64,000 bases of DNA from Patescibacteria group bacterium. Lineage in GTDB: Bacteria; Patescibacteriota; Patescibacteriia; Veblenbacterales; UBA10138. Positions 5,753 to 61,081 of this stretch are shown piece by piece. The stretch spans positions 14,895-78,894 of the forward strand of contig JBAZOT010000003.1 in NCBI GenBank assembly GCA_041648575.1, given 5' to 3'. Within the stretch, counting starts at the first letter, position 1; each line of letters begins with the position of its first letter. The position numbers were made by a program, and so were the translations under genes. The notes beneath the pieces were generated by a model that saw nothing but the letters and a program-made list of their open reading frames with translations, did not search any database and was not told the origin of the DNA.

Positions 5753-5786
5753 ACAAAAATATAAAATTTAAAAATAAAATGCAAAA

Positions 5787-6332
5787 TTAGATCTTTTGAA
5801 TTTGTAAAAAATCCAACTCTACTGGCGTTTCCCGTCCAAACATTGAAACCAATACTTTTACTTTACCCCGACCTTCGTCTACCTCGGATACCTTACCGTC
5901 AAAATCCTTAAAAGGCCCATCACTAATTTTTACTGCCATACCAACAGTCACATCCATTTTATAAGTTGGCTCTTCAATGCCCATTCTTTTTTGCAACGCC
6001 TTCATTTCTTCTTCTGAAACTGGAGTTGGAGTGGTGCCGCTACCAATAAATCCAGTAACATTTGGGGTATTACGCACCACATACCATGAATCATCAGTCA
6101 CCATCATTTCCACTAATACGTATCCTGGAAAAATTTTCTCTTCAACCACTTTACGCTTGCCATTTTTAATGCGAATCTTTTTTTCAGTGGGAATTAAAAT
6201 ATTAAAAATCTTATCACCCATATCCATTGATTCAATACGCTGCTTTAAATTGCGGGTAACATTTTCCTCATAACCAGAATAGGTATGTAGGGCATACCAA
6301 CGTCTACCTTGTTGTATTATCTGTCGCGGCAT
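5787..6332 (-). CDS. nusG: transcription termination/antitermination factor NusG
   Basis: WYALHTYSGYEENV (NGN domain) and KOW motif GMAVKISDGPFKDFDGKV. The ATG at 6330-6332 (MPRQ...) is the likely start. The ORF track adds four residues from a TTG inside the upstream repeat element. Confidence 0.9.
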   Translation of the reverse strand: MPRQIIQQGRRWYALHTYSGYEENVTRNLKQRIESMDMGDKIFNILIPTEKKIRIKNGKRKVVEEKIFPGYVLVEMMVTDDSWYVVRNTPNVTGFIGSGTTPTPVSEEEMKALQKRMGIEEPTYKMDVTVGMAVKISDGPFKDFDGKVSEVDEGRGKVKVLVSMFGRETPVELDFLQIQKI

Positions 6333-6484
6333 ATCCAGTAACAATAACTTGACCTGCTAAAAATTAAGCGAGTCAAAAGTTTATTTAATAGTTAGATCGG
6401 TCTTGTTTAAAAAAGATAACATAGATTAATAGTATAGATAATTTCTATCAGCACGAGCTTAAGTCAAGTTTTGTTACTGGACAT
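6333..6484. repeat. Copy 1 of a ~140-bp TIR-bounded intergenic cassette (copy 2 at 51633-51777)
   Basis: Left end CCAGTAACAATAACTTGACCTGCTAAAAATTAAGCGAGTC, right end GAGCTTAAGTCAAGTTTTGTTACTGGACAT. The termini are inverted repeats of each other (CCAGTAACAAAACTTGAC). About 41 nt on the left and 30 nt on the right are near-identical to copy 2, and the middle is about 70% similar. Confidence 0.8.
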
Positions 6485-6487
6485 AAT

Positions 6488-12881: not shown

Positions 12882-12978
12882 GTAATTTCAAAATGTAAAA
12901 ATCAAAATGCAAAATGACAGATTAAACTTTAAAATTAATAAATAATTTTGATTTTTGATTTTTTAATTTTAAATTAAC

Positions 12979-25369: not shown

Positions 25370-25404
25370 ATTAAAAATTTAAAATTTAAAAATCAAAATG
25401 AAAA

Positions 25405-26907
25405 CTAAACTATCATTTTTTTAACCTCTTCAACTGCTGTCTTAATTGCTTGTTCAATTTCTGGAGTTAATTCTTTTTTATCAGCAATCTGTTTTAATAC
25501 CGGCTGTCCTTTTAGATAATGATGGAATTTCTTTTCAAAATCAGAAATTTTCTCGACTGCTACATCATCCAGTAAACCATTAACTACCGAGTACAATATG
25601 GCGATTTGATTTGTAACGGACAAAGGTTCATACTGGCCTTGTTTTAAAATTTCAGTAATACGCTTACCTCGCTCTAATTGTTTCTTAGTTGTTTCGTCTA
25701 AATCAGAACCAAACTGGGCAAAAGCGGCGAGCTCTCTGTATTGGGCCACATCCAAACGCAATTTTCCAGCAACTTTTTTCATCGCCTTAACCTGTGCTTT
25801 TGAGCCAACGCGCGATACTGATAACCCCACATTAACTGCTGGCCTAATACCCTGATAAAATAAATCGCTTTCTAAATAGATCTGACCATCGGTAATGGAA
25901 ATAACATTAGTGGGAATATAAGCTGATACGTCGCCAGCTTGCGTTTCAATAATCGGCAAAGCTGTTAAACTTCCACCGCCATAATCTTTGTTGAGCTTAG
26001 CGGAACGTTCCAGTAACCGGGAATGTAAATAAAAAATATCTCCCGGATATGCCTCACGTCCTGGTGGCCTCCTTAGTAATAAAGAAATCTGCCTGTAGGC
26101 CACTGCATGTTTGGATAAATCATCATAAATCAACAACACATCTTTACCTTTATCCATAAAATATTCTCCCATTGCACATCCGGAGTATGGCGCTAAAAAC
26201 GTTAACGCCGCCGGATCCGAAGCACCAGCTACCACCACAGTGGTATAATCCATGGCGCCGAATTCCTGTAACTTGGCAACAATTTTTGCCACTTTTGATT
26301 CTTTTTGTCCAATGGCAACATAAACACAAAATACCTCCTGACCTTTTTGATTAATAATCGTATCAACCGCCAAAGCAGTTTTACCGGTTTGCCGGTCACC
26401 AATAATAAGCTCGCGCTGCCCGCGACCAATGGGAATCATTGAATCAATTGCTTTAATACCGGTTTGCAACGGGGTGTCGACTGATTGCCTAGTAATAACA
26501 CGTGGAGCAATTTTTTCTACTGGATAAAAAGTTTCAGCTTTAACTGGGCCTTTACCATCTAGTGGTTCGCCCAAGGGATCAACTACGCGACCGACAATTC
26601 CCTTGCCAGTAGGAACAGATAATATACGGCCAGTGGTTTTTACTGTGTCTCCTTGTTTAATCTCCACATAGTCCCCTAAAATCATGACTCCGACCATTGC
26701 TTCTTCTAAATTTAAAGCCACACCAAAAATTCCTTTGGGAAATTCAACCATTTCGCCTGATTGTACCGTCGCTAAACCAGAAATTTTAGCAATACCATCG
26801 CCTACCTCCACTACTGTACCGATTTTTTCGCCTGTTACCTTTCCTTCAAAATCAGCTAATTTGCTGGTTAATGATTTTAATAAACTTTCTTTGGTAATTT
26901 CAGTCAT
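25405..26907 (-). CDS. atpA: F0F1 ATP synthase subunit alpha
   Basis: GDRQTGKTA Walker A. Alpha-subunit signature. Confidence 0.97.
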
Positions 26908-32711: not shown

Positions 32712-32749
32712 TAGTCATTTACCCTTTCGCGCGAAAGGGTAAATGACTA
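32712..32749. repeat. Perfect 38-bp palindrome (b): TAGTCATTTACCCTTTCGC|GCGAAAGGGTAAATGACTA
   Basis: Perfect dyad. Inner core ACCCTTTCGCGCGAAAGGGT. Half-copy at 33082-33100 in front of the ArsR gene. Confidence 0.85.
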
Positions 32750-33056: not shown

Positions 33057-33081
33057 GTTGGTAGTATATCATATTTACTGA

Positions 33082-33100
33082 TTCGCGCGAAAGGGTAAAT
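33082..33100. promoter_or_regulatory. Half-site TTCGCGCGAAAGGGTAAAT of palindrome (b) overlapping the ArsR promoter region (likely autoregulatory operator)
   Basis: 19/19 identical to the right arm of 32712-32749. Lies 25-45 nt upstream of the arsR-like ATG next to a TATACT -10-like hexamer. Confidence 0.55.
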
Positions 33101-49721: not shown

Positions 49722-49742
49722 GCAACTTCTGGTCTTTTTTTA
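49709..49742. terminator. Probable bidirectional terminator between convergent genes
   Basis: AGACC-ggataagcaacttc-GGTCT followed by TTTTTTT. A-rich on the other side. Confidence 0.5.
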
Positions 49743-51632
49743 TCTAACAACCACTCCTTTGCCTTGCGCGCCTAAATCATTATCCAGTTCTGTGGTAACT
49801 AATTTATCTGTAGCAATTAAATCTGCACCGCTATAAGCATCCCGAGCTGTGGCAGTGGTGGTTTTTACCAACACTAAAATTTTATCCGCATCTTGCTCTG
49901 CCGGTGTAATAGCTACTTCAAAAGACGCTTCTGGTTTATCAAATTTAAACCCTACGCCCGCAGGCAGACGATTTAATTCCCAACGCACTTCGCGAGTATT
50001 GGGATTATATGTTAATGGCTGGCCATGCGATACTGTCGTTTGTCCGGTCCAGGTTACATCTTGGGGTAAAGTAGTAGTAACTTCAACGTTGCTAGCCTCA
50101 TTAATAGTATTGGCTAATCTCCAAAAAATATTATAAGTGGTAGTGTTGCCTACTCGCGGCGGCAACTGTCCCGAGCCAATTTTTATCAACTGATCTGTGT
50201 AATACCTACCTTCTGTTTGAACTAATAATTGTGTATTAATCTTGGTAATTATAATATTTGATTCAGTAGTAACCGGCTGTAATTTACCACCAATCAATTG
50301 CTCGGCACTCGCCTTAACGCTGGTATTAAAACTATAAGGCGACATATTGTTAGGAGCAACACTTACAACTTTCAAGCGAAAATTAATACTGCCTTTGGTA
50401 CCAGGAGCAACTCTAGCTAAACTGGGCAACTCATTTTTTGTCCAAACCACTGCGTTTTCTGTCTCTTTAACATTAGTTGGCGTATCTGTTTGCCAAGAGG
50501 TCCAATCTAATAACTCGGAATTTAATTTGGTCTCTAACACTAAATTAGTTAAAGCAATTTCCCCTTCATTAGCATAACGCAATTCAAAATCAATTTGTTC
50601 CCCCCAATCAGCATAGCTTTTTAAAACTACCTGATTCGCAGTTAATGACAATGTTAAATGAGACTCAATTAACGTTACAGATATTTTCTTTTCTTCTTGA
50701 ATAGTAAAAGTATTATCGTCATTAATCACACCAATGGCTACAGAAAAATCCTGAATACCAGCACTAGCTGAAGTGGTAAACCTGCCGGTAAATTCCAGCT
50801 CGCCAACACTTTTGGCAGATAGGTCATCCAATTTCCATAAATTTATTTCGCCAATTACTGATTCTAATTTTGGAAGATCCAATTCGAAGCCGCTGGGGCT
50901 AATGAATTTTAATGCTAAATTCGGCAACGCCGCAGTAGAAGTATTATTATACTTAATTTTTAATGCCAAATCTTGATCAAAAGGTAATTGTGCAGGAGCT
51001 TCTAAATCTATGGTTACTACCGAAGCAATTAATTCTGTGGAAAAAACTGTCGTCTTGGCAAACTGTGCTTTAAAATTTTCCGGCTCATATGTAAAAACCG
51101 CGGCCATTTCCTTAATCTCGCCAACCTCACCAACCATTTGCCCGGTTATTACCAACTCTCCACTACCTTTGGCGTCAACTTGACCTAAGAGAAATCTAGT
51201 CTTGGCTTCATCATCAGCTGGTTTACTGGTTTCAGTTACGACAAAACCAGTCGGATAGCGAAAATTAACTTCCAAAAAATTTAAACCAACTCCCTGATCA
51301 TTATTCCAAGACAAAGTATAATTAATCATTTGCCCCGATGGCGCACTGACTGGACCAGATAATTTCACCTTAACCGCTTCTTCGCCAAATTTTGTATTCT
51401 GACCACTAAAAAAAACAAACCAAATGCCACCGACAATAATTACCACTAATAAAGTGGTCGTTAACCATAACCAACCACGCTGACGTGAAGCTTTTTTTCT
51501 TAGCACGCGAAAATCTTCAGGTGGATCTTGGCGATACATGCGCGCCAATTCACGCTCGGCAACTTCTGCAGTTAAAGGTGTTTTTTTTGATTTTGATAAA
51601 GTATCAAGAGGTGGCCTAGAAATATTAGACAT
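49740..51632 (-). CDS. large membrane-anchored extracytoplasmic protein (about 630 aa; cytoplasmic N-terminus, one TM, beta-rich ectodomain), unknown function
   Basis: ...RQRGWLWLTTTLLVVIIVGGIWFVFF TM. Long Thr/Ser/Val-rich ectodomain. The likely start is ATG at 51630-51632 (MSNISRPP...). Confidence 0.6.
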   Translation of the reverse strand: MSNISRPPLDTLSKSKKTPLTAEVAERELARMYRQDPPEDFRVLRKKASRQRGWLWLTTTLLVVIIVGGIWFVFFSGQNTKFGEEAVKVKLSGPVSAPSGQMINYTLSWNNDQGVGLNFLEVNFRYPTGFVVTETSKPADDEAKTRFLLGQVDAKGSGELVITGQMVGEVGEIKEMAAVFTYEPENFKAQFAKTTVFSTELIASVVTIDLEAPAQLPFDQDLALKIKYNNTSTAALPNLALKFISPSGFELDLPKLESVIGEINLWKLDDLSAKSVGELEFTGRFTTSASAGIQDFSVAIGVINDDNTFTIQEEKKISVTLIESHLTLSLTANQVVLKSYADWGEQIDFELRYANEGEIALTNLVLETKLNSELLDWTSWQTDTPTNVKETENAVVWTKNELPSLARVAPGTKGSINFRLKVVSVAPNNMSPYSFNTSVKASAEQLIGGKLQPVTTESNIIITKINTQLLVQTEGRYYTDQLIKIGSGQLPPRVGNTTTYNIFWRLANTINEASNVEVTTTLPQDVTWTGQTTVSHGQPLTYNPNTREVRWELNRLPAGVGFKFDKPEASFEVAITPAEQDADKILVLVKTTTATARDAYSGADLIATDKLVTTELDNDLGAQGKGVVVR

Positions 51633-51777
51633 ACCCAGTAACAAAAACTTGACCTGCTAAAAATTAAGCGAGTCGAGATAATTAATAATAAAAGTTGGTT
51701 GGTTTATAAAAGCTGACATAAATTGATAATATAGATGATTTTTACCAGAGCTTAAGTCAAGTTTTGTTACTAGGCAT
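51633..51777. repeat. Copy 2 of the ~140-bp TIR-bounded intergenic cassette
   Basis: ACCCAGTAACAAAAACTTGACCTGCTAAAAATTAAGCGAGTC ... GAGCTTAAGTCAAGTTTTGTTACTAGGCAT. See copy 1 at 6333-6484. Confidence 0.8.
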
Positions 51778-51779
51778 AT

Positions 51780-52529
51780 TTATAGAATACTACGTAAAAG
51801 TTTTAATGTATAGAGTTGTCGTCCTGCCTGTCCTTGGACATAATCAACCAAAAATCCTAAAAGTTCAGCTGGTAATTGACGATTATACGGTGGTTCCGCT
51901 CGTGTCGCTAGGGTGTGTAAATAACTTAAAGCGTCATCAGTTAATAAAAACAAACCACTGCTATCGATGATACAATTTTTATGATAAAAACCATGTTCTC
52001 TAAAACTAAACACCACGGGCGCTGCTAATTCACCTTGGCATTTTGGACACCTAGTAACTTGAATTGCTAGACCAGTAATTTTTAATATTTTATAAATAAA
52101 TCTGCCCAGATATGTTCTGGCTCGCTCACGCCAAGCCGGCTCATCTTTGGGAATATCTTTTAATTGGCTTAAATAATACCTTAGCGATTTTAATAATTCC
52201 GGTTCAGGCGCGCCTAAAGAAGTTAGCACATCAGTTATTTCCAAAAACGAAGTGCCTAAAATGGCGGTATTTAAATGATAAGGTGTTTTTAAAAAAATTC
52301 TTTTAAGTTCCGCGCCTGCTAATTTATCATATTTTTTCCCCGGTGCCACCTGTACCTGAACTTCACCAAAAATCACCAAATGTGGAGCTAATTTAGATAA
52401 AATTTTTCGCGAACTAGTAGCTACCGCCTCAACCTTACCCCGTCGCTCTGTAAAAATAGTATAAAGCCGATCATTTTGCCTATGACTTCTAGCGCGTAAA
52501 ACAATACCGGTAGTGGTATAAGTAGACAT
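51780..52529 (-). CDS. recO: DNA repair protein RecO
   Basis: N-terminal OB fold (...TGIVLRARSHRQNDRLYTIFTERRGKVEAVA...). C-terminal zinc motif CPKCQGE...HKNC. Confidence 0.75.
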   Translation of the reverse strand: MSTYTTTGIVLRARSHRQNDRLYTIFTERRGKVEAVATSSRKILSKLAPHLVIFGEVQVQVAPGKKYDKLAGAELKRIFLKTPYHLNTAILGTSFLEITDVLTSLGAPEPELLKSLRYYLSQLKDIPKDEPAWRERARTYLGRFIYKILKITGLAIQVTRCPKCQGELAAPVVFSFREHGFYHKNCIIDSSGLFLLTDDALSYLHTLATRAEPPYNRQLPAELLGFLVDYVQGQAGRQLYTLKLLRSIL

Positions 52530-60292: not shown

Positions 60293-60550
60293 TTAAATTA
60301 GACTTAATGTTTCTCTTAATATTAGATGTAAAGATTTTTTCCCAGGATTAGTTTTAAAATATTTCTCGCGCCTTAGGGCGTCACCCTTAGCTAAAAAACC
60401 TTCATAAAAAATTAATTTACACGGGCGTCTATTCTTGGTAGCGGGTGCCCCTCCTGCGTTATGTGTTTTAACTCTGTCCTTTAAATTCGAAGTAAAACCA
60501 ATATAAAACTTTTTATCTTTCAAACTATATAATAGGTAAACGTAATACAT
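60293..60550 (-). CDS. GIY-YIG nuclease-superfamily small protein (UPF0213-like)
   Basis: MYYVYLLYSLKDKKFYIGFTSNLKDRVKTHNAGG... The ORF track's upstream TTG extension is unlikely. The ATG at 60548-60550 is preferred. Confidence 0.75.
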   Translation of the reverse strand: MYYVYLLYSLKDKKFYIGFTSNLKDRVKTHNAGGAPATKNRRPCKLIFYEGFLAKGDALRREKYFKTNPGKKSLHLILRETLSLI

Positions 60551-60593
60551 TTGTCTACTGCCCTTAAAGTACGCGCTTCGCTTGACTTTAGGG

Positions 60594-60708
60594 CATGAAG
60601 TATATGCTAGCAAATTAATACGCCATGAAGTTGTATAAAGAAGTAAATACTTCTTGGCTCGCCATGAAGTTATGCGAATAAAATGAGCATATACTTCATG
60701 GTGGAGAT
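60594..60708. promoter_or_regulatory. Cluster of CATGAAGT iterons (3 direct, 1 inverted) between the tmRNA 3' end and the GIY-YIG/infC operon
   Basis: GCATGAAGTA at 60595, CGCCATGAAGTT at 60633 and 60661, ACTTCATGGTGG at 60693-60704, overlapping the tmRNA CCA end. Confidence 0.4.
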
Positions 60709-61081
60709 GGCGGGAATTACACCCGCGTCTAAGACAATTAACTTTACCCTTCTACAAACTTAGTCTGATTAATTTTGACAGAAGTCAAATCAGACCAAAG
60801 CCCCTGTCAATCTGTCCTAAGTAATGTCGGCCTAAGCACTAGAACAATACTTAAACCCTGCTCGATAAATGACGCTCTATAAGACTATCGAGATCGTCTA
60901 ATAGAACGGCCTCTGCTTAAATTAAGCAAAAGCTGGTGCTAGTGTCAAAGTGCTAAAAGCAGCTTTGGCGCGAGCTACAAATGATTTGGCATTTGTGAAG
61001 TGTGATGCTTTTATTACGCAGACACATCAACTGCGGTCTGCCAGACAAAGATCACTGCCTTATCGATTGTTAAACATCCCC
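60700..61081 (-). ncRNA. ssrA: tmRNA (SsrA), about 382 nt
   Basis: Minus strand 5'-GGGGAUGUUUAAC... and 3'-...GACGCGGGUGUAAUUCCCGCCAUCUCCACCA. 7-bp acceptor stem with G3.U wobble (AlaRS identity). T-arm GCGGG/UGUAAUU/CCCGC. Encoded CCA. Plausible tag ORF GCC AAA UCA ... GCU UUU GCU UAA (AKSFVARAKAAFSTLTLAPAFA*). Adjacent to smpB. Confidence 0.85.

Follow-up and report, generated by a model that had tools for sequence, protein, structure and literature searches.

Why should two genes of one bacterial genome start directly behind the same sequence? In a 64-kb stretch of DNA from a Patescibacteria group bacterium (metagenome contig JBAZOT010000003.1, 101 kb; the whole stretch that was analyzed is called the window here), nusG and the gene for a 630-residue surface protein are both preceded on the minus strand by GTCAAGTT(A/T)TTGTTACTGG(A/G)T-ATG, in which an in-frame TTG adds four codons to each open reading frame (ORF). 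The original prediction saw in this stretch the inverted repeat of an inserted cassette and offered two explanations of the constant junction, namely, that the element always inserts in one frame relative to the ATG or that the ATG belongs to the terminal inverted repeat (TIR), in which case the element would carry its own start codon and create starts wherever it lands. Our analysis makes it very likely that what precedes both genes is a right-hand inverted-repeat arm belonging to a miniature, non-autonomous mobile element, together with the element's 4-bp target-site duplication; the likely parents of this element are units of ~310 bp that bear a gene for a GIY-YIG nuclease. The element does not create starts, as the ATG is the duplicated T+ATG of the host, a point that follows from matching duplicates other than TATG and from empty sites with a single TATG.

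Two copies of a miniature element in the window

Copy 2 reads GTCAAGTTTTTGTTACTGGGT-ATG-TCT-AAT-ATT (51653..51621, minus strand) and copy 1 reads GTCAAGTTATTGTTACTGGAT-ATG-CCG-CGA (6353..6324, minus strand), and a 24-nt pattern with up to 3 mismatches allowed matches exactly these two sites of the window, compared with 0.00 expected from 100 shuffles. Each stretch forms one end of a unit of ~145 nt (Table 1). The two units are ~80% identical, with identical end blocks of 24 nt and 29 nt, and in each of them arms of 19-20 nt pair end to end with a single bulged base in the right arm. Folded as RNA, copy 1 gives a hairpin of -41.2 kcal/mol (z = -5.3 versus shuffles) and copy 2 one of -37.8 kcal/mol (z = -5.9 versus shuffles), and in both the host AUG lies at the base of the stem. 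Neither copy has coding capacity; their arms are of the CTTGAC type, and the left ATG merely opens ORFs of 6 codons, MSSNKT-stop in copy 1 and MPSNKT-stop in copy 2.

A third copy was searched for in the 64-kb window and none was found, and an Rfam 15 scan of the window returned only the transfer-messenger RNA (tmRNA) at gathering score, with the element copies matching no curated covariance model. Scans for sigma-70 promoters and terminators brought up nothing common to both copies, with counts near the shuffle expectation, and we claim no promoter.

The junction with nusG runs ...GCAGGTCAAGTTATTGTTACTGGAT-ATG-CCG-CGA (ATG at 6332..6330) and that with the 630-residue gene ...GCAGGTCAAGTTTTTGTTACTGGGT-ATG-TCT-AAT (ATG at 51632..51630), both on the minus strand. 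The opposite end had been predicted to read on the other strand; in fact it is found on the same, minus strand as the right end, as TATG(T/C)C(C/T)AGTAACAAAACTTGAC, that is, ATG(T/C)C(C/T)AGTAAC. The element proper is (C/T)C(C/T)AGTAAC...GTTACTGG(G/A), and TATG lies outside it on both sides.

Target-site duplications and empty sites

For a metagenome scan, we used a pattern made of the inner arms only, AGTAACAAAACTT N95-125 AAGTTNTTGTTACT, and since the flanks are not part of this pattern, the scan makes no advance assumption about them. All 37 copies that were recovered end at CCCAG.../...CTGGG, and the matching 4-mers that flank them are TATG in 26 cases, ATGA in 3, and CATG, TTGA, CTGG, and CATA in 1 case each; a CTTA/CTTA duplication was seen once, in a sister subfamily, and duplications of 3 bp and 5 bp in one copy each. 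The right flank varies with the left flank, and the tetranucleotide therefore derives from the target and not from the element. A gapped scan of the first 1.2 Mb of loci gave 7 arm pairs flanked by TATG and 0 for most control tetranucleotides, and an ungapped inverted-repeat scan with TATG flanks came up empty, owing to the additional base in the right arm. Tandem arrays in which neighboring units have one TATG in common occur at loci L010, L095, L102, L103, and L117, and at L114 a mini-element of a sister family is nested in an arm, with a TGAA duplication.

At four independent copies (junctions at L088, L093, L094, and L118), the flanks read CATG on the left and TATG on the right, always in that order. 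Simple mutation does not predict such one-sidedness, and mismatched-overhang ligation or selection for T at position -1 might account for it.

The closest relatives (93% NusG identity) have no element in the secE-nusG spacer and a single TATG there, which reads ...TATCAATAAAC-TATG-CCCAGACAA at L002 and ...TTATCAAG-TATG-CCGCGACAA at L004. The recO site is empty in L150, which comes from the same assembly as L002 (...aaat-TATG-GCACCGCCACGACCATCTCTCGATACT), and the site between recO and a 631-residue gene is empty in L151 too, where the spacer has 90 nt; tblastn of RecO and the 630-residue protein against the initial loci had given no matches, and these empty recO sites were found through a homologue search and gene context. 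The more distantly related L006 (85%) carries a copy of the element of its own before nusG, with the compensatory arm changes CTTCAC/GTGAAG and CTCAG/CTGAG. An apparent spacing polymorphism behind P0148 proved to consist of N-filled scaffold gaps at repeats and not of population variation. Being shorter than ~300 bp and free of genes, with TIRs, a duplication that varies with the site, many loci, and empty sites, the window copies are miniature inverted-repeat transposable elements (MITEs) in structure.

The secE-nusG spacers of L003/L005, L011/L014, L017, L022/L029, and L027 hold inserts of unrelated hairpins or repeats (AATTTTTAATTTTGAATTTTTAA repeats, CACTAGAACATTAGATCACTAGATC... palindromes, CGTAACGCGTAACG... 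repeats, and a GGAGATCCGACGTTACGTCGGATC hairpin), and this spacer looks like a general landing site.

Start assignment and arm pairing

ORF lists begin nusG at a TTG (5787..6344, 185 aa) as opposed to the ATG at 6332, and the surface-protein gene likewise (49740..51644, 634 aa, as opposed to the ATG at 51632), and the in-frame TTG-TTA-CTG-G(A/G)T reported before both ATGs, with its extensions of four codons, is borne out by the sequence and by these lists. It is constant because the fixed right arm abuts the host ATG, which is the right duplicate. The 120 best NusG homologues all have 181 aa, and the homologues of the 630-residue protein have their N termini within a few residues of MSNI; in relatives without the element, the sequence 5' of the ATG is unrelated. 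Moreover, ATGA-type insertions put the TTG out of frame, and the ...AAGTTGATATACNGGG subfamily (GATATAC) has no in-frame start. An N-terminal extension is conserved neither in the homologues of the two proteins nor in the ATGA-type and AAGTTGATATACNGGG copies, and the TTG extension is a functionless by-product of a fixed arm that abuts a duplicated ATG. The absence of a Shine-Dalgarno motif from the conserved 40 nt, which had been put down as a feature of the junction, is real but not specific to the element, since it is genome-wide: such motifs precede 6 of the 57 window genes, compared with a background of 5.7%. T stands at position -1 in 41 of these 57 genes (72%), which makes TATG an ordinary start context.

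In an alignment of 36 copies from several subfamilies, compensatory double changes were found at 11 of the 19 arm pairs; arm cells are paired in 89% of cases versus 30-46% when the partners are slid, and 0 of 500 shuffles reach the observed arm-pairing measures. What the inner arm conserves is complementarity and not sequence, a pattern that would be expected of a structure-specific nuclease reading a hairpin or cruciform, and an RNA-level constraint on the arms is also possible. Arm mismatches on the sense strand comprise 34 G.U and 10 A.C, a count that is suggestive, though noisy and not phylogenetically corrected, and that we do not use as proof of an RNA role.

These observations bear on three other explanations of the stretch. 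An element that carries its own ATG at the end of the inverted repeat, or, in a variant, one that inserts 3' of TATG as IS200/IS605 elements do and ends in its own TATG, would fit the presence of TATG at both ends of most copies and an orientation to TATG that is nearly fixed, as in tetranucleotide-guided oriented insertion. Such an element is extremely unlikely here, as left flanks other than TATG are mirrored on the right (TTGA, CTGG, CTTA, ATGA, CATG, and CATA), the empty sites already hold TATG plus the same second codon, and no HUH transposase is associated with the arms. What stands of the two options in the original prediction is that the junction with the ATG is not due to chance and is a property of the element, given 40 of 47 copies at a start codon in the same orientation and an ATG at both ends. 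The ATG itself is not in the inverted repeat; alignment of further copies places it outside the TIR, and the frame relation that the prediction had staked on such copies is missing from the ATGA-type and AAGTTGATATACNGGG ones. That translation truly begins at the TTG, with the arm supplying the host proteins with four conserved extra residues at the N terminus (MLLD or MLLG), strikes us as scarcely credible, even though the frame is open from the TTG at both window genes and TTG is a legal bacterial start codon: the NusG homologues (120/120) and the existing gene call agree on 181 aa, the upstream sequence of element-free relatives is unrelated, the frame relation is gone in ATGA-type insertions and the GATATAC subfamily, and the predicted stem buries the TTG more deeply than the ATG. 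The very stable hairpins in which both copies sequester the AUG (z = -5.3 and -5.9), arm covariation with a G.U bias of 34 versus 10 on the sense strand, and unrelated hairpins in the secE-nusG spacer of other relatives could also point to a cis-regulatory RNA passed on by vertical inheritance, for example, a leader hairpin, an attenuator, or an RNase III site serving nusG and other genes, instead of mobile DNA. We give this very little credence in view of the varied duplications, the empty orthologous sites, the tandem arrays and nesting, the gene-bearing versions before dozens of unrelated genes, and the lack of an Rfam match, although a secondary RNA-level role after insertion is possible.

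Insertion at start codons

When the 47 unique copies were oriented by their interior sequence, 40 of them had a start codon in the right duplicate in gene orientation, with the host ORF next in 33 and the next array unit in 7, whereas 1 copy is inverted at the start of an opposite-strand gene (L109) and 6 lie at non-start sites. The genes behind the elements include nusG, secE, and gyrB-, thyA-, tmk-, ftsW-, and ribosomal-protein-like genes (N termini judged by eye). Of the TATG occurrences in the window, 43 are at gene starts, 61 at other intergenic positions, and 351 within genes; host-adjacent TATG insertions lie at ORF starts in ~29 of 29 cases, as opposed to ~41% if only intragenic insertions were lost. 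A C follows TATG in 17 of 33 targets, compared with 6 of 57 window genes (a hand count for the latter). The preferred site, TATGCC, therefore mimics the left junction of the element, TATG-CCC, and nusG of relatives begins TATGCCCAGACAA, which may be a reason for recurrent insertion at this gene.

Full-length units encode a GIY-YIG nuclease

The same arms and TATG duplication also bound units of 309-313 bp whose sole content is a GIY-YIG ORF, and examples of these full-length units were found at L010, L083, L111, L118, L128, L138/L139, and L148. At L010 two identical full-length copies stand in tandem before nusG, and at L083 a full-length unit with arms of the window-copy type precedes a site-2-protease-like gene. 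At L118 and L148 a full-length unit is followed by a gene-less unit and then by an ABC-2 gene and ftsW, respectively, and at L138/L139 the dnaA stop is followed by TTTG-TATG and then by a full-length unit. The sizes of arm-bounded units are bimodal (~140 and ~310 bp), with 59 units at ~100-199 bp and 16 at ~300-349 bp. In 1.64 Mb there is no genuine single arm-bounded unit larger than ~313 bp, as larger spans are tandem units, nested insertions, or unrelated repeats (the oversized span at L114 is two elements plus one nested), and the only enzyme between the arms in these 1.64 Mb is the PF01541 GIY-YIG nuclease, with no DDE, HUH, or serine or tyrosine recombinase.

The left duplicated ATG shares its reading frame with the nuclease ORF, which runs through the left arm (MPSNKTSQ/P...); in 6 of 6 full-length examples the ORF stops 10-33 nt 5' of the host ATG, either within the right arm or just short of it. 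Homologues of the nuclease number 401, and ~40 of the 53 that were fetched begin with the arm-encoded MPSN(K/N)TS; M1, P2, and N4 are at least 90% conserved, and codon 9 is usually ATG or GTG (ATA in L083). The likeness of the window copies to the GIY-YIG ORF is confined to the arms, and the subterminal TGGCA..AAGT is common to full-length units and some of the other copies. The ~310-bp GIY-YIG units are the likely parents of the window copies.

The protein has ~95 aa (85-102 aa) in a single domain (Pfam GIY-YIG, E = 9e-15). Its closest solved sequences are the uncharacterized UPF0213 proteins 1ZG2 and 1YWL, and neither NCBIfam nor PHROG holds a fitting family. An AlphaFold model (pLDDT 86.8) has one domain and confirms the GIY-YIG fold, with SLX1 as the closest match to the predicted fold. 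In 40-44 sequences, among them an arm-less homologue encoded in the window, the active-site residues Y, G, R, H, and E do not vary. The nuclease has no separate DNA-binding domain, and its target information is limited to ~TATGCC.

A sister family (P0211) has the arms CCCCGTTAGAAATT/AATTTCTAACGGGG and a TTCG duplication in at least 2 contexts. At L141-L147 and L114 (5960-6062), the 4-bp duplications of this family, TTCG and TGAA, are not at start codons, and the family has both a GIY-YIG-bearing form (P0211, before NUDIX or HNH genes) and a gene-less form, which is nested in the right arm of another element.

A proposed mechanism and its alternatives

What we see directly are TIR units with 4-bp duplications, insertion that favors TATG(CC) at start codons and a single orientation, gene-bearing and gene-less forms, and an ORF that extends from arm to arm in the frame of the duplicated ATG. 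From this combination, the GIY-YIG nuclease is probably the enzyme that moves the element. It would recognize the paired arms as branched or hairpin DNA and cut with a 4-nt stagger, and the orientation would come either from the non-palindromic TATG overhangs or from an asymmetric reading of TATGCC. A cassette cut at both TATGs could be ligated in one way only into a site cut at TATG, and such cohesive ligation would also explain the single-TATG arrays and precise excision. Insertion copies the host start codon: the right duplicate remains the ATG of the host gene, and the left one, still in its native upstream context, stands at the head of the element. Ribosomes initiating at this left ATG, often 1-4 nt past the upstream stop, would unwind the stem, and in full-length units they would terminate within reach of the host ATG, thereby coupling host translation to the element and keeping essential genes expressed. 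Our confidence decreases from the nuclease as the enzyme to the cut in branched DNA, then to orientation by overhangs, and is lowest for the handover of ribosomes.

We tentatively put forward a wider reading that is quite possible, though we hold it with less assurance than the role of the nuclease: the family may be a new class of prokaryotic DNA transposon and the smallest autonomous one (~310 bp), in which a lone SLX1-like GIY-YIG nuclease of ~95 aa recognizes the hairpin or cruciform formed by the element itself, makes cuts staggered by 4 nt at TATG(CC), and so inserts directionally at start codons, borrowing the initiation site of the host gene and returning the ribosomes through the stop in the right arm.

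An unlikely, though not far-fetched, alternative to the nuclease as mobility enzyme is that its gene is a passenger, a free-standing homing-endonuclease gene within a MITE, and that an unrelated transposase encoded elsewhere moves the arms, for example, a DDE enzyme making 4-bp duplications. Duplications of this length are typical of several DDE insertion sequence (IS) families, the genomes were sampled as fragments, and a GIY-YIG transposase is neither known nor was one found in the open-access literature. A passenger would hardly be expected, however, to fill the space between the arms exactly, from left arm to right arm, in four arm subfamilies and the sister family, nor to have an arm-encoded N terminus conserved in dozens of proteins at 55-90% identity; no single arm-bounded unit exceeds ~313 bp in the 1.64 Mb, and covarying arms fit a structure-specific nuclease and not a sequence-specific transposase. 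Even less likely, in our judgment, is an element with no intrinsic preference for start codons, which would insert at any 4-mer and be retained by selection alone where it duplicates a start. The 6 of 47 copies at non-start sites with unrelated duplications would agree with this, and compact genomes (86% coding) would purge intragenic insertions. Other intergenic sites should be at least equally harmless, yet ~85% of copies lie exactly on the ATG, although only ~2 positions per spacer duplicate it; the orientation is 40 to 1, and C is ~5-fold enriched at the first base of codon 2. This orientation bias and the enrichment of C both indicate that the enzyme recognizes TATGCC.

Several observations weigh against a start-codon-targeting element that is moved by its own nuclease and has left two copies in the window. 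Some flank pairs are imperfect (CATG/TATG four times, CTGA/CTAA, and TTGG/TTGA), and there is no duplication in L083_4036. The recO spacer of 77-90 nt that relatives possess (L150 1124-1200, L151 1111-1200) is lost in the window (51775-51781), so copy 2 did not arise by one simple insertion step. Most copies at different sites share 75-94% identity (~80% for the window pair), and most insertions are therefore old. Translation of the nuclease may begin at an internal start, codon 9, instead of at the duplicated ATG, and the window's own GIY-YIG gene has no arms. We infer the role of the nuclease in excision and integration from co-occurrence alone, and to our knowledge GIY-YIG enzymes are hydrolytic nucleases, none of which is known to act as a transposase. 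Finally, the base-composition background for the target preference is that of the window genome only.

Feature coordinates and neighboring features

The arm-less GIY-YIG gene of the window (Table 1) has arm-like relics (ATACAACTTCATGGCG) beside it at ~60560..60700, adjoining the tmRNA. Within 60293-60720 (minus strand), upstream of the gene, there are three or four relics, CCATGAAGTATATG, CATAACTTCATGGCG, TATACAACTTCATGGCG, and CATATACTTCATGCCC, as well as a local hairpin, GCCCTAAAGT...ACTTTAAGGGC. This gene may be a decayed element at the 3' end of the tmRNA or may encode a nuclease that acts in trans on both window copies. A more distant GIY-YIG gene (33% identical) lies at L007 (2500-2990) between copies of a 15-bp direct repeat, CGGGGTATGGCCTAA, which is the 5' end of a tRNA gene and contains GGGTATG; this arrangement suggests an insertion into the tRNA gene with partial duplication.

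Table 1. Coordinates of the two element copies, their host genes, and the arm-less nuclease gene in the window
Feature	Position	Strand	Basis or remark
Copy 1 of the element (148 nt)	6334..6481	-	between secE and nusG; hairpin; empty sites in L002 and L004
Right arm, copy 1, GTCAAGTTATTGTTACTGGA	6334..6353	-	pattern match
Right TATG duplicate, copy 1	6330..6333	-	ATG (6332..6330) starts nusG; 181 aa in the gene call
In-frame TTG in right arm, copy 1	6342..6344	-	spurious start behind the 185-aa nusG reading
Left arm, copy 1, TCCAGTAACAAAACTTGAC	6463..6481	-	sequence
Left TATG duplicate, copy 1	6482..6485	-	two bases past the secE stop; opens MSSNKT-stop
nusG, 181 aa, host gene of copy 1	5787..6332	-	gene call, homologues
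Copy 2 of the element (141 nt)	51634..51774	-	between recO and the 630-aa surface-protein gene; hairpin
Right (3') arm, copy 2, GTCAAGTTTTTGTTACTGGG	51634..51653	-	pairs with 51756..51774, one bulged base
Right TATG duplicate, copy 2	51630..51633	-	ATG (51632..51630) starts the 630-aa gene; L150 empty site has a single TATG
In-frame TTG in right arm, copy 2	51642..51644	-	spurious ORF start behind the 634-aa reading
Left (5') arm, copy 2, CCTAGTAACAAAACTTGAC	51756..51774	-	sequence
Left TATG duplicate, copy 2	51775..51778	-	one base past the recO stop; opens MPSNKT-stop (6 codons) through the arm
630-aa membrane-anchored DUF11/DUF7619 protein, host gene of copy 2	49740..51632	-	domain search, homologues
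GIY-YIG gene without arms, 85 aa, with 52% identity to the nuclease of full-length units	60293..60550	-	lies between tmRNA (60699-61081) and infC

The minus strand carries 57 of the 60 window genes, and on the plus strand C far exceeds G (13,687 versus 9,965). tRNA-Trp often lies upstream of secE; ARAGORN found only the tmRNA in the window and no tRNA gene in the 64 kb, the region upstream of secE included. AT-rich AAATTTAAAAATCAAAATG(C/A)AAA repeats, direct and inverted, stand between genes (12882-12978, 25370-25420, and 5755-5789; families D4, D14, I1, I2, and I6) and resemble the insert in the secE-nusG spacer of L003/L005. A 28-nt palindrome with a perfect stem, ATTTACCCTTTCGCGCGAAAGGGTAAAT, is present in two copies 328 nt apart (32717-32744 and 33073-33100; D9, I8) and is unrelated to the element.

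Relation to known systems and significance

The Correia/NEMIS MITEs of Neisseria are similar in that they are gene-less units of ~100-150 bp with TIRs and short duplications, vary in presence between relatives, and lie in many copies in transcribed spacers directly 5' of genes, where their transcripts are predicted to form long hairpins. In contrast to these, the element described here duplicates 4 bp at a TATG start codon and not TA, has a nearly fixed orientation, and has arms that covary instead of keeping one sequence, and the units that share its arms encode a GIY-YIG protein and not a DDE transposase. With the GIY-YIG homing endonucleases (I-TevI and T4 Seg), the nuclease shares the catalytic domain and its conserved active-site residues, but it consists of ~95 aa with this domain only, has a target of ~4-6 bp versus 14-40 bp, and occurs at dozens of unrelated loci versus one cognate allele, with inverted repeats, duplications, and gene-less derivatives. 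SLX1 is a host repair enzyme that acts with SLX4 and has no associated repeats, and UPF0213 (YhbQ-like) proteins have no assigned function; we know of no mobile role described for either, and none was found in the open-access literature.

IS200/IS605 elements with their palindrome-associated derivatives and REP/RAYT systems are likewise very small and hairpin dependent, with oriented insertion tied to a tetranucleotide. They differ in having an HUH (Y1) transposase, subterminal hairpins, and no target duplication, whereas here the TIRs pair end to end, the duplication is real, and the enzyme is of the GIY-YIG type. Rickettsia palindromic elements are also palindromic mini-elements, and like them the present element seemingly adds residues to host proteins; unlike them it lies outside the ORF, and its four extra codons are an artifact of ORF calling. 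The family does not fit the known IS families, the classical GIY-YIG homing endonucleases, or IS200/IS605, and it is a family of start-codon-targeting mobile elements in Patescibacteria with a minimal GIY-YIG nuclease as the only gene. A prokaryotic GIY-YIG element that combines inverted repeats with target duplications did not turn up in the open-access literature, which is absence of evidence only.

For annotation, our findings mean that gene callers and ORF tracks over-extend the genes behind these elements and that the arm-encoded MPSNKTS is annotated as a protein N terminus. A minimal nuclease with a short, directional insertion preference might also become a practical tool. If the proposed transposon class is true, DNA transposition would gain a new class of enzyme, and autonomy a new lower size limit. 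In genomes that lack Shine-Dalgarno motifs, the elements occupy the start codons of genes that are essential and highly expressed, and how initiation proceeds behind a 20-bp stem bears on start-site selection in these bacteria.

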